DNA of 14,121 nucleotides from Candidatus Velthaea sp. (GTDB lineage: Bacteria > Vulcanimicrobiota > Vulcanimicrobiia > Vulcanimicrobiales > Vulcanimicrobiaceae). The position numbers were made by a program, and so were the translations under genes. This document shows, one piece after another, positions 522 to 7,102 of the stretch (its first letter is position 1; the number at the start of each line of letters is the position of its first letter). The stretch lies in assembly GCA_050012475.1 (NCBI GenBank), contig JBEKHC010000117.1, positions 1-14,121 of the forward strand, in the 5' to 3' direction. The notes under the pieces were generated by a model, which worked only from the letters and a program-made list of their open reading frames with translations, was not told the DNA's origin and made no database searches.

Positions 522-620
522 CTAAAACAAGCAGCGCCCCCGTCGGCTGCGAACGAGTGTGATGCCGAGTGCTTGCTCGGCGTACGCCAAGGAGCCCGTC
601 GGGCTTTGTCGATCCACTAC
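522..620 (-). repeat. Structured intergenic repeat, copy D
   Basis: Minus strand reads GTAG-TGGA...AGCCC-GAC-GGGCTCC-TTGGCGT-ac-GCCGAGC-AAGC-ACTCGGC...GTTTTAG. Starts at the argB TAG stop. Shares the TCC-TT(C/G)GCGT linker, CAAAGCCCGA and a GTTT(C)TAG end with copy A. Confidence 0.6.
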
Positions 621-1414
621 CGGACGATTTCGGTTCCGGCGCCGGCGAGCGCCGACGGCACCGCGCCCGAACCGGGGCCGCAGATGAATGCGTGCGCGAC
701 CCCGCCGCGCACCGCGGTCAGCGCCGCATCGATCTTGGGCAGCATGCCGTTGACGAAAACGCCGCGCGCGCGGTACGCCAACGCTTCGTCGACCGTCATC
801 CGCGAAATTCCCGACGCCGGATCGTCGCGATCGATGCGGACCTGCGTCACATCGGTGACCGCCACGTAAGCGTCCGCGGCCAGCGCCGCAGCGAGCGCTC
901 CGGCAGCGGTGTCAGCGTTGATGTTATAGCGCTGACCGCCGGCATCGGCGCCGATCGGCGAAACCACCGGAATCGCGCCTTTATCGAGAACGGCTCGCAC
1001 CGGCGCCGTCTCGATCCGCTCGATCTCGCCGACAAAACCCAAATCGCCCGCCGGGAGCTCGAGCTTGCGTGCGATGAAAACCCCTTCGTCGCCCGCCACG
1101 CGTTGCGCTCGGCCGCCCGCTGCGATGAGCGCCGCGACGATCGCGGCGTTGACGCGCCGGCCGAGAATCTCCTCGACCACTTCGAGCGTCGCGCCGTCGG
1201 TGACGCGCAGGCCGGCGATGCGCCGCGTCGTTACGTTGCGCGCGCGCAGTTCAGCGTCGACGGCAGGGCCGCCGCCGTGCACGAGCACCACCGCGGTCCC
1301 GCCGGCAGCAAGTGCGACGAGATCGGCCAACACCGGATCACCGCTCGCGCCGCCGGCGACCGAACCGCCGAATTTGATCACGAGCGACGACGGTGCGACG
1401 AACGGCGAGGCCAT
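617..1414 (-). CDS. argB: Acetylglutamate kinase
   Basis: VIKFGGS, VLVHGGGP, GLRVTD, DLGFVGEI, IPVVSPIG, YNINADTAA and GMLPKI motifs of NAGK. Start placed at ATG 1414 (in-frame GTG 1429 is an alternative); the track start at 1540 overlaps chaB. Confidence 0.95.
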   Translation of the reverse strand: MASPFVAPSSLVIKFGGSVAGGASGDPVLADLVALAAGGTAVVLVHGGGPAVDAELRARNVTTRRIAGLRVTDGATLEVVEEILGRRVNAAIVAALIAAGGRAQRVAGDEGVFIARKLELPAGDLGFVGEIERIETAPVRAVLDKGAIPVVSPIGADAGGQRYNINADTAAGALAAALAADAYVAVTDVTQVRIDRDDPASGISRMTVDEALAYRARGVFVNGMLPKIDAALTAVRGGVAHAFICGPGSGAVPSALAGAGTEIVR

Positions 1415-1458
1415 GCCGCCGATCTGCACGTCCGCGCATCGAAACTCCTGGATTCGCT

Positions 1459-1484
1459 GAATGCCGGCGACGCCGCGCGGGTAC
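1459..1484 (+). promoter_or_regulatory. SigB/SigF-type promoter motif (GAAT-N16-GGGTAC) upstream of the ChaB gene, probably leaderless
   Basis: GAAT at 1459-1462, 16-nt spacer, GGGTAC at 1479-1484; ATG follows 9 nt later with no Shine-Dalgarno. Confidence 0.45.
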
Positions 1485-1493
1485 GATCCGCGC

Positions 1494-1901
1494 ATGCCGA
1501 AAAAAGAACCCGACGCGCCGTTCGCGCCCCTGCCCTCCACCCTGCAGCGCTCGCCGCAGAAAGCCCAAGCGACCTACGAAAAAGTGCTCGAGAACGCCGA
1601 AACCGAGTACGCCGGCGACGAAGAACGCGCGCATCGTGCTGCGTGGAGCGCGGTGAAGCACAGCTTCGAGAAAGTCGGCGACCACTGGGAAGCCAAAGCC
1701 GAAAAGGGGCCTAGCGATCCGCGCAGCGTTCAGCCGCAAGCGGCGAAGATCGCCGGCGTGGGCGAAACTTTCGGCGGCGTGGACATGCTCCACCACACCA
1801 AAGCCGAACTCGCATCACGCGCCCGCGAACTCGGCCTTGAGACGACTTCGCACATGACCAAGAGCGATCTCGCCCGCGCAATCGCGAAAAAGCAGCGCTA
1901 G
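1494..1901 (+). CDS. chaB: ChaB-family protein with a C-terminal Rho_N-like helical motif
   Basis: LPSTLQRSPQKAQATY...EERAHRAAWSAVKHSFEKVGDHWEAK is a ChaB pattern; C-terminal TKAELASRARELGLETTSHMTKSDLARAI resembles the Rho N-terminal domain. Confidence 0.85.
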   Translation: MPKKEPDAPFAPLPSTLQRSPQKAQATYEKVLENAETEYAGDEERAHRAAWSAVKHSFEKVGDHWEAKAEKGPSDPRSVQPQAAKIAGVGETFGGVDMLHHTKAELASRARELGLETTSHMTKSDLARAIAKKQR

Positions 1902-5166: not shown

Positions 5167-5168
5167 CA

Positions 5169-5663
5169 ATGACCGTTGAAACCGCCCACCTCGCGCAGCC
5201 CAAAACCAAACGTCAGCGCGCGATCCTTTCCTTGATCGCCGCCCGCCCCGTGCGCTCGCAAGACGAGTTGGCGATGCTGCTCGAACAGCAGGGCTACGAA
5301 GTTACGCAGGCCACCATTTCGCGCGACATCAAGGAACTGGGCTTGATGAAGGTTCCGCTCAAAGGCGCAACCGGCGGACAGTTCAAGTACGTCGAGCCCA
5401 GCGTGGGACCGTCGTTCACCTCGCGCCTGCACCGCATCGTGGCGGAACTCGTCCTGTCGGTGCGCGGCAGCGTCAATCAGATCGTGTTGCGCACGCCCCC
5501 CGGCGGCGCGATGATGCTCGCCTCGGCGATCGATTCGGCGGGCTGGGGCGAGGTGATCGGCACCCTGGGCGGCGACGACACCGTGCTCGTGATCTGCGAG
5601 AAAGCCGAAGTGATGCCGATGGTCATGCAGCGCTTCGAAGACATGCGAACGCAAATCGAATAA
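5169..5663 (+). CDS. argR: Arginine repressor
   Basis: SQDEL...VTQATISRDIKELG winged-helix motif and C-terminal GTLGGDDT arginine-binding motif. Confidence 0.97.
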   Translation: MTVETAHLAQPKTKRQRAILSLIAARPVRSQDELAMLLEQQGYEVTQATISRDIKELGLMKVPLKGATGGQFKYVEPSVGPSFTSRLHRIVAELVLSVRGSVNQIVLRTPPGGAMMLASAIDSAGWGEVIGTLGGDDTVLVICEKAEVMPMVMQRFEDMRTQIE

Positions 5664-5740
5664 CCTCGGGTCCCCGACCTTTTCTTCCCTTTTCTCACCA
5701 ACCCCGGGATAAACGCGTCCCGGCGTGGAGCGCACCCAGC

Positions 5741-6973
5741 ATGAAAATCGTTTTGGCTTACTCCGGCGGACTCGACACCTCGGTCTTGCTCAAACAATAT
5801 GTCGCCGCCGGCCACGAGGTCGTGGCGATCACCGCCAATGTCGGCGAATCCGATATGGTTTCCGGCGAAGGTTCGCAAGACGCGCTCGAAGCCGTGCGGC
5901 GCAAAGCCTTGCTGCTCGGCGCCAAAGATGCCGTGCTGGTCGATGCGCGCGAACGCTTCATCAAGGACTACGCGTACAAGGCGCTGGCTGCGAACGCGCG
6001 CTATCAAGGCGTTTATCCGCTTTCGGCGGCGCTGTCGCGGCCGCTCATCGCGCAGCTTTTAGTGGAAACCGCCGCCGCCTACGGTTACGATGCCGTCGCC
6101 CACGGCTGCACCGGCAAGGGCAACGATCAGGTCCGGATCGAAGTCGGCGTGCGCGCCGCGGCTCCGCATCTCAAGACGCTGGCGCCGCTGCGCGACACGC
6201 CGCTCTCGCGGCCCGACGCGTTGGCCTACGCCGCGGCAAACGGCGTGCCGGTGTCGCAGACCGCGGCGAAGCCGTATTCGGTCGACGCGAATCTGTGGGG
6301 CCGGTCGATCGAAGCCGGCGTGCTCGAAGATCCGTGGAACGCGCCGCCCGAAGATTGCTTCGATTGGACGGCAACGCCGGGGACCGAACCCCCCAACGGC
6401 GCTGAGATCGTGCTCGCCTTCGAGCGCGGCATACCGTCGATGAACGGCGCCGGCGGCGCGGATTTCGTGTTCGAGCTCAATAAGATCGCGGGCGCCAACG
6501 GCGTCGGCCGGATCGACATGATCGAAGACCGCGTCGTGGGGCTCAAATCGCGCGAAGTGTACGAGTGCCCGGGCAGCGTCACGCTCATCGAGGCGCACAT
6601 CGCGCTCGAGCGGCTGGTGCTCACTCGCGACGAACTGCGCGTCAAAGCCGGACTCGACCAGCGCTACGGCGAGCTGATCTACGACGGGCAGTGGTCCAAC
6701 CCGCTGCGCGGCGCGCTCGACGCGTTCAACGAGCATCTCGCGGCCCGCATGACGGGCGAAATTCGCCTGCGGCTCATCCGCGGCCGAGCCGTCGTGGTCG
6801 GCGCGCGTTCGCCGTTCGCGCTTTACGATCAATCACTGGCCACCTATGCGCACGGCGATACGTTCCGGCACGATGCCGCGGGCGGCTTCATCGAGATTTG
6901 GGGCTTGCCGGTCGCGGTGGGAGCGGCCAAAGCCGCCCAAGCCGCCGACCGTTCGACGCCGTCATTGGTCTAG
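5741..6973 (+). CDS. argG: Argininosuccinate synthase
   Basis: LAYSGGLDTS, ALSRPLIA, HGCTGKGNDQVR, YSVDANLWGRSIEAG and EDRVVGLKSREVYE. Confidence 0.98.
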   Translation: MKIVLAYSGGLDTSVLLKQYVAAGHEVVAITANVGESDMVSGEGSQDALEAVRRKALLLGAKDAVLVDARERFIKDYAYKALAANARYQGVYPLSAALSRPLIAQLLVETAAAYGYDAVAHGCTGKGNDQVRIEVGVRAAAPHLKTLAPLRDTPLSRPDALAYAAANGVPVSQTAAKPYSVDANLWGRSIEAGVLEDPWNAPPEDCFDWTATPGTEPPNGAEIVLAFERGIPSMNGAGGADFVFELNKIAGANGVGRIDMIEDRVVGLKSREVYECPGSVTLIEAHIALERLVLTRDELRVKAGLDQRYGELIYDGQWSNPLRGALDAFNEHLAARMTGEIRLRLIRGRAVVVGARSPFALYDQSLATYAHGDTFRHDAAGGFIEIWGLPVAVGAAKAAQAADRSTPSLV

Positions 6974-7102
6974 ATGATTCGCCTCGGATTGATTCGTCTC
7001 GGCTCTCGCTCGACGAATCCCGCTCGACGAATCCTTCGCGTTCGGCCCTGCGGGCCGAGCCGCACGTCGCCGGCCGCTGGGCGAAGCCCGGCGAGCGTCT
7101 AG
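6968..7102 (+). repeat. Structured intergenic repeat, copy B, flanked by GTCTAG direct repeats
   Basis: GTCTAG at 6968-6973 and 7097-7102. Body AATCC-TTCGCGT-TCGGCCC-TGC-GGGCCGA-GCCGC...TGGGC-GAA-GCCCG-8 nt-CTAG is collinear with copy A. Internal tandem repeat CGCTCGACGAATCC x2. Confidence 0.85.

Follow-up and report, generated by a model that had tools for sequence, protein, structure and literature searches.

Gene-less multi-hairpin repeats with CTAG junctions at gene ends in Candidatus Velthaea

Here we describe a lineage-specific family of hairpin repeats that carry no gene and sit at the ends of genes in Candidatus Velthaea sp. The family is real: about 270-380 loci, or some 0.7% of this genome, were recognised, where Markov controls gave none or a handful of matches. 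It works like the REPINs and BIMEs of other bacteria and is not a member of them. On balance, we consider that its units are probably moved as folded single-stranded DNA (ssDNA), much as REPINs are, by a nicking enzyme that acts in trans. The analysis started from a window, the whole stretch of 14,121 nucleotides studied here, in which four copies (A to D) of one TAG-bounded element had been proposed.

Copies in the window and the fold of the unit

Copies A and B have the layout claimed for them by the original prediction: a hairpin ending in AATCC, TTCGCGT, hairpin 2, GCCGC, 14 nt, hairpin 3, 8 nt and CTAG. Read from the sequence, the stems of hairpin 2 differ between A and B, and both pair perfectly around a 3-nt loop. 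The features of the window are as follows:

2337-2428, + strand: copy A, a full unit whose left junction reads CCAG
2342-2362, hairpin 1 of A; 2363-2369, linker; 2370-2384, hairpin 2; 2385-2389, GCCGC
2403-2417, hairpin 3 of A; 2425-2428, CTAG
6970-7102, + strand: copy B, a full unit between argG and argH
6970-6973, CTAG of B (the argG stop), followed by a duplicated hairpin-1 region up to 7034
7035-7041, linker of B; 7042-7058, hairpin 2; 7059-7063, GCCGC
7075-7093, hairpin 3 of B; 7099-7102, CTAG, its G being the first base of the argH GTG
1898-1961, - strand: copy C, 3' half of a long-palindrome (C-type) element (58.7 bits to the C-type HMM; BLAST matches)
1898-1901: CTAG of C, including the chaB TAG stop
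1962-2010, - strand: decayed A/B-like fragment (some of hairpin 1 and a GCCGC tail) merging into the C-type core, by sequence reading
587-620, - strand: copy D, weak, a probable internally deleted unit with the left end fused to a right-end fragment (motif counts)
2082-2327, - strand: Phd/YefM antitoxin gene between A and C (PF02604, E 4.8e-10)
5741-6973, + strand: argG, a host gene that supplies the left junction of B through its TAG stop (PF00764, PF20979)
7102-8502, + strand: argH, a host gene overlapped at its start by the right CTAG of B (PF00206; orthologues found)

The four copies are not one element: only A and B are full three-hairpin units. Copies B, C and D do each start at a TAG stop, as predicted (argG 6971-6973, chaB 1899-1901, argB 617-619), whereas A is not TAG-bounded on its left and has no same-strand stop at its start; its CTAG end lies 9 nt beyond the stop of an opposite-strand HAD gene. 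The covariance model, trained on an alignment without copy B, gives B 29.6 bits (E 6e-6). The membership of C holds in part, since 1898-1961 belongs to a separate long-palindrome type and only the decayed 1962-2010 piece, which the A/B covariance model does not find, is A/B-like; similar nesting is seen in G003 (L112/L294). Copy D is at best a 35-nt remnant: of the proposed 522-620, only 587-620 resembles fused ends. It has no HMM match at >=14 bits and scores 7.9 bits (E 1.3) by covariance model; genome counts of its two motifs are 5 and 3, with 0 in both controls.

The A/B class is a polar unit of 85-130 nt that reads CTAG, hairpin 1, fixed linker, hairpin 2, GCCGC, hairpin 3, CTAG. Its three hairpins are different, its ends share an inverted repeat no longer than 3-4 letters, and 1-2 variable letters lie between the TAG and the first hairpin; in one variant both ends start with CTAG-G(G/A)A. 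Only the C type is palindromic, its arms matching each other out into the flank while the outer letters vary from copy to copy. A sister class carries the linker TGGCGT, forms tandem hairpin-2 arrays that decay distally and accumulates (CAG)n runs at its left end. Modules recombine freely.

With covariation rows picked by flanks only, the stems covary strongly while the linkers are fixed, as the original prediction would have it; loop polarity is fixed as well. In hairpin 1, 502 of 549 cells are Watson-Crick (shuffle mean 363, maximum 402); in a separate count 98.1% of 465 cells are paired, with two-sided changes in 11 of 15 pairs (0/500 shuffles), in controls that leave relatedness among copies in place. 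The claim of selection on fold rather than sequence is sustained in part: the fold is kept as letters change, but copying from arm to arm may also give perfect covariation.

Loops read C-TNC-G in 55 of 63 cases in this genome and 80 of 87 at other loci, which places pyrimidine triloops on the RNA strand and GNA loops (C-GNA-G) on the opposite, antisense strand. Non-canonical cells (G-T 8, A-C 14, other 14) show no G-U excess, and the folding energies of the two strands differ by just 1-5 kcal/mol. DNA mini-hairpins of the GCGNAGC kind are described as unusually stable and related RNA hairpins as far less so (PMC13037366). The C-GNA-G antisense loops and the lack of a G-U excess therefore favour ssDNA over RNA, and the structured-RNA option raised at the outset is disfavoured: covarying stems are present, while an RNA-type signature is absent and an Rfam search returned nothing near threshold.

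Distribution, junctions and placement

A strict descriptor matched this genome 41 times and two same-size Markov-3 genomes 0 and 0 times; profile HMMs for each module gave 20-165 matches at >=16 bits (93 for the C type), with 0 in both controls. By covariance model, the repeat occurs in 11 of the 70 host-family genomes scanned (Vulcanimicrobiota; soil and peat bacteria) and in 0 of 79 other genomes. Among the congeners G001, G002 and G003, pattern matches number 43 in G003 and 0 in the other two, against 44 in the genome of this DNA (G000); the repeat is absent from two of three congeners and from most genomes of the family. Near-identical copies stand at dozens of loci. A dispersed, non-autonomous family of patchy distribution is accordingly supported. 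Outside this phylum, a GTDB pattern scan matched no titled record; BLAST against plasmids and phages gave short partial matches only, no record covering >29% of the queries. Viral contigs gave 17 pattern matches, none with hairpin 1 by eye, which we judged to be chance. A literature search, with most subscription papers outside its reach, found no published description of this repeat, and the main text of a 2026 preprint on non-coding sequences, whose supplements may list the family, has 0 mentions of the phylum names, CTAG or MITE.

Two empty sites reveal the junctions. Between argG and argH in G003 the TAG/GTG overlap contains one CTAG, where the filled site has two, and the same holds for G000:C67 compared with L296. 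The feature of a target-site duplication is therefore present in these two-CTAG filled sites, although a CTAG borne by the element would look identical. The right end reads CTA+G in 23 of 26 cases; among metagenome units, CTAG stands on the left in 33 of the 40 that show this end, a next unit follows directly in 9 of 49, and no flank preference beyond CTAG was visible by eye in those 49. Unlike variants are stacked head to tail, sharing one CTAG, and neighbouring units are head-to-tail in 8 cases, tail-to-tail in 0 and head-to-head in 1. The contigs of 8 public runs contained neither an excised or empty allele nor a circle joint for copies A, B and C; one run (X1) carries B minus a 15-nt internal stretch.

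Placement favours gene ends, with 247 of 450 gene 3' ends and 22 of 264 5' ends within 10 nt, and only 2 of 273 loci inside confident genes; since the gene calls come from an in-house dicodon model, counts of stop proximity carry some error. Pfam assigned 74 neighbours of metagenome copies to unrelated host genes, plus two IS110. Insertion at TAG stops that leaves genes intact is supported by the CTAG at both junctions and the empty sites, but TAG alone does not account for the placement, since members of the sister class also follow TAA and TGA. In 24 of 43 cases this TGGCGT class opens in phase at a distance of precisely 2 or 5 nt behind a real stop (against 10.9%). A DNA motif combined with purifying selection explains far less of this placement, which counts against the explanation that we prefer.

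Known systems and the search for a mover

REPs, REPINs and BIMEs, with their RAYT/TnpA-REP enzymes (PMC3116915, PMC8266576, PMC3733652), behave, as described, in a similar way: hundreds of extragenic hairpin repeats downstream of genes, patchy in close relatives; strand-specific hairpins with a conserved foot motif that IS110 uses as targets (PMC11208160); tandem arrays; and insertion beside or into existing copies. Here, in contrast to the two inverted REPs of a described REPIN, the unit is polar with three hairpins, CTAG stands at either junction where the empty site cleanly shows a single one, the stems vary far more than the linkers, and no RAYT or Y1 gene was found in the repeat-rich genomes tested. 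The family had not been recognised at first sight, and it indeed matches neither the GTAG nor the CGTC/SRM tags, nor Rfam; GTAG is absent among the eight commonest foot words on both strands of 67 cores.

The CGTC/TGTC REPs are the NTS/SRM repeats of Ssn GIY-YIG nucleases (PMC3733652, PMC11893778), and Ssn-type nuclease-plus-repeat cassettes are present in the same bacterial family. These described repeats share with ours oriented ssDNA hairpins and purine-rich loops, whereas SsnA requires the stem sequence, stems here vary, and G000 has no Ssn-like gene. The published SRM pattern gave 27 genome matches (controls 32 and 38) and 0 in element loci, a weak test for the TGTC subtype because 9 of 10 local TGTC-type cassettes were missed. 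The core of one module appeared akin to TGTC repeats, with 11 near matches against 6, and was not clearly above control.

MITEPsy1, a MITE of 100 nt, duplicates either CTAG or YTAA (PMC3189936); like it and other described CTAG-duplicating MITEs (PMC3184786), our units are about 100 nt and non-coding, and once inserted they have a CTAG on each side. We found no terminal inverted repeats in common with a parent IS, and the C type, though palindromic, changes its outer letters between copies. Described non-autonomous derivatives of IS200/IS605 and IS91 likewise lack terminal inverted repeats and have sub-terminal hairpins, a tetranucleotide junction, a variable far end and head-to-tail arrays (PMC8266576, PMC3189936). 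Our family differs from them in that it has no replichore bias (leading strand 12/23 and 5/13 among listed copies of two single-contig genomes, the origin placed at dnaA), no evident guide-to-target pairing and no Y1 or Y2 found with the repeat. IS200/IS605 elements do show a replichore bias, and the conserved letters at the hairpin foot here are at odds with the way IS608-type guides specify CTAG. A one-sided 2-kb G/T skew at fourfold sites was absent around four module classes (G+T share 0.45-0.53 in all bins). Unlike IS110 non-autonomous elements, no ~11-nt bridge-RNA target/donor was evident by eye beyond CTAG. The alphaproteobacterial CIR, RIME, Bru-RS and RPE repeats are ~110-nt intergenic mosaic palindromes for which we know of no transposase; their likeness to our family is one of general description.

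RAYT/TnpA, IS5-type and IS110 enzymes had been suggested as movers, and none tracks the family. The search took in ten families (PF01797, NF047646, PF04986, PF01609, PF13340, PF13358, PF01548, PF00078, PF04480, PF01541), covering Y1, RAYT, IS91-type Y2, IS4/IS5 DDE, IS427-type, IS630, IS110, reverse transcriptase, DUF559 and small GIY-YIG; none of these follows the repeat, even in single-contig genomes. RAYT (NF047646) was found in 0 of 5 genomes. PF01797 gave 0 in our genome (local tblastn included), none above cut-off in 5 repeat-rich genomes, and matches in 7 of 151 family genomes, none of them repeat-flanked. The Y2 search (PF04986) gave 0 of 5, but its positive control was also silent. 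IS110 is absent from 8 repeat-bearing genomes. The only GIY-YIG match in our genome is of UvrC size, the best E of a local Ssn-like HMM being 0.68, and in relatives it is a different repeat that flanks the small GIY-YIG genes. G160 holds a weak Y1 that also has another repeat at its flanks, and genes with our repeat on both sides (8 in our genome; 27 close pairs; also in G261) are ordinary host genes by sequence.

Explanations and significance

In the reading that we favour, the enzyme would act on one strand, where it recognises the foot of the stem together with the C-GNA-G mini-hairpin. It would meet the C-GNA-G loops of hairpins 1 and 2 on the antisense strand and the purine loops of hairpin 3 on the sense strand, so that each end has a purine-looped hairpin 5' of its own-strand CTAG. 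It would nick at CTAG and join the unit to another CTAG, so the target is rebuilt by every insertion, and copies would survive where the CTAG is a stop codon or intergenic. Against this reading stand the failure of the mover search, the missing replichore bias, the misfit to the IS608-type guide rule, the lack of an excised or empty allele in the 8 runs and the small difference in folding energy between the strands. A stronger version, which we regard as doubtful, would make this undescribed mobile DNA: a transposase-free unit recognised by mini-hairpin shape, not by its stem sequence, and mobilised by a nuclease that belongs to no known transposase family. One of its classes would target, in phase, the base just behind any translated stop, which would couple insertion to gene expression and let junctions be recolonised repeatedly.

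The units could instead be classical MITEs of a CTAG-duplicating DDE transposase (IS5, IS427, IS630 or IS1182 type) whose ends have worn down and whose transposase is lost or unassembled, which we think unlikely. CTAG is palindromic and duplicated, with the described precedent of MITEPsy1 (PMC3189936); one variant shares CTAG-G(G/A)A ends, the C type is palindromic, further palindromic elements (L183, L208, L212) have the same CTAG junctions, and our genome holds two broken IS630 copies. The minimal A/B inverted repeat and the variable letters after TAG speak against it, as do the gene counts: DDE_Tnp_1 (PF01609) is missing from G000, G003, G062, G261 and G164, with 32 matches in the repeat-free G043, DUF4096 stands at 0/17 and DDE_3 at 1/24, and no DDE locus is flanked by the repeat or carries unit ends. 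We give an equally small probability to a host-selected RNA element, whose tandem 3' stems would shield transcripts, terminate them or make ribosomes stall at the stop, with selection placing and keeping the copies and gene conversion homogenising them. E. coli REPs <=15 nt from a stop are described to stall ribosomes (PMC12306157), and the exact post-stop position of the TGGCGT class fits, as does the prevalence of sense orientation beside stops (23 against 6, and 48 against 14). Of 394 orthologous junctions, 14 are occupied in both G000 and G003, where 2.4 would be expected (Fisher p 1.6e-9); class or orientation often differs there, and the two-hairpin core is kept at orthologous sites after hairpin 3 loss (L111 and L357; L139 and L344), a retention that, under our preferred reading, may reflect a putative secondary role as a 3' mRNA stem. 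The RNA element accounts for retention better than for spread, however, and pyrimidine triloops on the RNA strand, the lack of a G-U excess, U tract or Rfam match, unrelated neighbour genes and the absence of the repeat in most genomes of the family, two of the three congeners included, oppose it.

The least likely account dispenses with a dedicated mover: where DNA is nicked or forks stall at hairpins, repair by host enzymes that switch template and synthesise by fold-back would give rise to the copies, and would also perfect stems and build arrays. It draws on the C-type arms, whose outer variable positions agree better with each other than those of swapped arms (n = 11), on a fully palindromic hairpin 3 (L214), on free module recombination and (CAG)n runs, and on the single-contig genomes G062 (31 model matches) and G126 (17), which bear the repeat without Y1, IS427-type, reverse transcriptase or DUF559 genes. 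Those copies may, however, predate loss of the mover, and precise CTAG-to-CTAG insertions at unrelated sites in near-identical copies are hard to obtain without a specific enzyme.

The enzymes known to be linked with REP-like repeats belong to two families, RAYT (GTAG) and Ssn (CGTC); as our family has neither tag nor gene, yet shows young insertions, a third partner enzyme is indicated, for which the family is a precise fishing substrate. The near-free stems, fixed linkers and loop polarity suggest a shape-reading ssDNA nuclease, with possible use as a tool, and the precision with which the sister class follows stops opens the crowding of REPs behind stop codons (targeting or selection) to a direct test.

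Around the copies themselves, the antitoxin gene between A and C is missing at this place in congeners, HAD and argB being adjacent in G001, G002 and G003, none of which has an element after argB. The stretch behind the antitoxin, which gave no Pfam match, starts like a PIN-type toxin. RNA-library contigs span the arg operon and part of B, with lower depth on the argH side, from which nothing is inferred because contig depth cannot rank genes. The repeat sits on the ends of housekeeping genes and is now a landing pad, one IS110 having been retargeted to the unit's left end.

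Repeat units in an arginine-biosynthesis region

The window is an arginine-biosynthesis region in which the original prediction placed four copies, A to D, of one multi-hairpin element. On direct reading of the sequence, the claimed anatomy of A and B was confirmed to the base: hairpin 1, a linker, hairpin 2, GCCGC, hairpin 3 and CTAG. Profile HMMs, motif counts and a covariance model did not uphold C or D as a full copy. The features are:

587-620 (-): copy D, at most a 35-nt fusion of both ends, under the threshold of every model
1415-2430: 1-kb insert holding chaB, element C, what may be the decayed start of a toxin, a Phd antitoxin gene and element A
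1898-1961 (-): copy C, one half of a palindromic element of another type (93 HMM matches for the type)
1962-2010 (-): decayed A/B fragment joined to C
2337-2428 (+): copy A
3203-4140 (-): SpoIIE-type phosphatase gene, split in two frames near 3635
6970-7102 (+): copy B, between argG and argH
6983-6997: 15-nt internal stretch of copy B, missing from one public run (X1)

The 15-nt stretch, which copy B carries and run X1 lacks, means that strains continue to diverge in this element. One public run lacks a base at the split in the phosphatase gene, so the split may come from misassembly or from variation between strains. The 1-kb insert lies between HAD and argB and is missing at that place in the three congeners (G001, G002 and G003). 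Since C, the Phd antitoxin and A all lie between two CTAG sites (1898 and 2425), the repeat may have carried the antitoxin gene into this place. The possible toxin start had no Pfam match and bears what we take to be a PIN-like motif.

In the window's own genome (G000), a strict linker-hairpin-GCCGC descriptor found 41 copies against 0 and 0 in two Markov-3 controls, so the repeat is more frequent than in control DNA, as predicted. Of the 2727 intergenic regions, all-against-all BLAST placed 376 in a single linked component; widened to the whole genome, it gave 383 loci spanning 39 kb and 16174 matches (18 and 15 in controls), and profile HMMs gave 273 merged loci, 2 of them within confident genes. 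Two classes have in common a core of hairpin 1, linker, hairpin 2 and GCCGC. The class with a TCGCGT linker, to which A and B belong, terminates in hairpin 3 and CTAG; its sister class, with a TGGCGT linker, is without that end and repeats the linker and hairpin 2, with differing stems and distal decay. An additional module is an inverted variant of hairpin 1. C-type elements are long palindromes centred on a hairpin-GCCGC core, and in 11 full copies the two arms agree at outer variable positions more often than swapped arms: 8, 11, 10, 9 and 6 against 5.5, 7.7, 5.1, 4.4 and 3.8.

Distribution, junctions and placement

Duplicated stretches among loci from different searches were removed by sequence before counting. 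A GTDB pattern scan gave 26 loci, 23 titled Vulcanimicrobiota, Eremiobacteraeota or Ca. Elarobacter and 3 only "uncultured bacterium". The core pattern matched 44 times in G000, 43 times in G003 and 0 times in G001 and G002. The covariance model, with per-genome counts taken among the matches listed (at most 39 each), placed the repeat in 12 of 150 genomes of the phylum, with 11 of 70 in the host family and 0 of 79 outside it.

Two empty-site orthologues were found, each with a single CTAG when empty: in G003, argG and argH overlap at TAG/GTG without an insert, and a reverse case pairs contig C67 of G000 with locus L296. The right end is CTA+G in 23 of 26 cases, and at left ends the letter before TAG is C in 30, G in 7, A in 7 and T in 6 of 75 rows. 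Among 49 distinct metagenome units, selected by right end, the left end can be seen in 40, of which 33 begin at CTAG; 9 of the 49 are followed directly by another, often different, unit. The joints are head-to-tail in 8 cases, head-to-head in 1 and tail-to-tail in 0; inverted dimers, however, may be lost through instability or fail to assemble. Apart from CTAG, the flanks showed no visible preference, and eight public runs yielded no empty allele. Upstream of the match in L183, L208 and L212, palindromic elements of other, unrelated kinds stack onto the CTAG junctions that the repeat uses.

An IS110 sits within the joint of two tandem units in metagenome loci (L197:49-1640, L192:1951-2190, L193:1-160; compare L078, L075). 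The 5′ non-coding part of this IS110 holds two variable segments, predicted to be the target segments of a bridge RNA, and both match the left end of the unit; its homologues in G000 carry other letters there, matching their own left flanks. The IS110 is a passenger aimed at the repeat, not its mover, and a case of natural retargeting onto a repeat; IS110 elements targeting REPs are described in PMC11208160.

Within 10 nt of a locus lie 247 of 450 gene 3′ ends, compared with 22 of 264 gene 5′ ends. Of 25 A/B-class cores, 8 start at a stop on their own strand, and 7 of those stops are TAG. TAG is not the only stop concerned: in the TGGCGT class, 24 of 43 start exactly 2 or 5 nt after a real stop (TAA 11, TAG 9, TGA 4), real stops being only 10.9% of stop-like triplets (p = 8e-13). 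For A/B, CTAG targeting and loss of harmful insertions suffice, since 26% of CTAG sites in non-coding DNA plus stops are stops. At TGGCGT-class sites, CAG triplets often lie between stop and element, and orthologues show that the stop came before the element. Among 394 orthologous gene junctions compared between G000 and 1.16 Mb of G003, on contigs chosen for carrying elements, 14 are occupied in both genomes (2.4 expected; p = 1.6e-9) and 15 and 19 in one only; where both are occupied, classes or orientations often differ. Other genera keep the two-hairpin core at orthologous sites, with stems changed and hairpin 3 lost. In L347-L359 (genomes G062 and G261), copies within one genome have a genome-specific hairpin-1 signature in common. 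This holds even where a copy occupies a site whose orthologue in another genome also has one, and it suggests that copies evolve in concert or are replaced repeatedly.

Fold, strand and candidate mechanism

With alignment rows selected by flanking letters only, hairpin 1 is Watson-Crick in 502 of 549 cells (mean 363 and maximum 402 in 5000 shuffles) and hairpin 2 in 80 of 84 and 143 of 154 (shuffle maxima 75 and 121). An alignment tool returned 98.1% paired, with two-sided changes in 11 of 15 pairs (0 of 500 shuffles; slid controls 26-51%). The expectation that fold is kept while sequence varies is thus borne out, against controls that leave kinship among copies in place; such covariation could also arise without selection, through arm-to-arm copying. 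Hairpin-2 loops read C-TNC-G in 55 of 63 own copies and 80 of 87 others, which makes C-GNA-G the reading of the complementary strand, a motif of very stable DNA mini-hairpins whose RNA relatives are much weaker (PMC13037366). Non-canonical cells (G-T 8, A-C 14, other 14) show that wobble pairs are not favoured on the mRNA strand. On the sense strand, most hairpin-3 loops are rich in purines. Loop polarity and the lack of wobble preference suggest, at the level of sequence, that the fold matters in single-stranded DNA; both speak against an RNA element selected by the host, which we consider unlikely.

The repeat consists of polar hairpin units with CTAG at both junctions and single-CTAG empty sites; it stacks, covaries, has polar loops and lies at gene ends. 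Taken as a whole, this is best explained, with fair but limited confidence, by a trans-acting enzyme that moves a folded strand between CTAG sites. Such an enzyme would bind the folded strand of the unit, nick at CTAG and paste the unit into another CTAG, each insertion rebuilding its target; fold-back copying would perfect the stems and build the palindromic type. Insertions would persist at stops and between genes, and the core may be retained because it forms a stem at the 3′ end of the mRNA; in E. coli, ribosomes stall at REPs that lie no more than 15 nt from a stop (PMC12306157).

A search for ten mover families gave none whose presence follows that of the repeat; RAYT/TnpA, IS5 and IS110, for which genes flanked by copies had been proposed, are among the ten. 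Single-contig genome G062 (31 model matches) holds IS110, and Y1, DDE_Tnp_1, DUF4096, reverse transcriptase and DUF559 were not found there; in single-contig G126 (17 model matches), Y1, IS110, IS630, DUF4096, reverse transcriptase, DUF559 and small GIY-YIG were not found. That both are rich in copies yet without most of these families favours repair without a dedicated enzyme, which nevertheless seems slightly the least probable account; these copies may be old. A worn DDE MITE is about as doubtful as the host-selected RNA: the repeat has CTAG duplication in common with MITEPsy1 but lacks its terminal repeats (PMC3189936), and the one DDE_Tnp_1 of G126 is not flanked by the repeat. A multi-copy mover gene could be missing from the assemblies of G000 and G003, as both are fragmented MAGs (94% and 90% complete). 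Copies have no replichore bias. In one case (L186:1620-1990), a decayed IS200-type tnpA beside tnpB has a unit at its TAG stop, probably by chance, and a TIRYT-like Y1 transposase (L035:60-720, genome G160) is flanked by a different inverted repeat.

Known relatives in mode of working

We found no description of the repeat in the literature or in Rfam. Alphaproteobacterial CIR, RIME and Bru-RS repeats are a possible lead for comparison. REPINs and BIMEs resemble it in mode of working but have GTAG and a RAYT, both absent here (PMC3116915, PMC8266576); CGTC/SRM repeats likewise differ in having their tag and Ssn (PMC3733652; PMC11893778). Ten loci from the host family (L302-L309, L323, L336) hold small, Ssn-like GIY-YIG genes flanked on both sides by inverted hairpins with a TGTC tag. 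Several of these loci have polar tandem arrays alongside, and 9 of the 10 escape the published SRM pattern.
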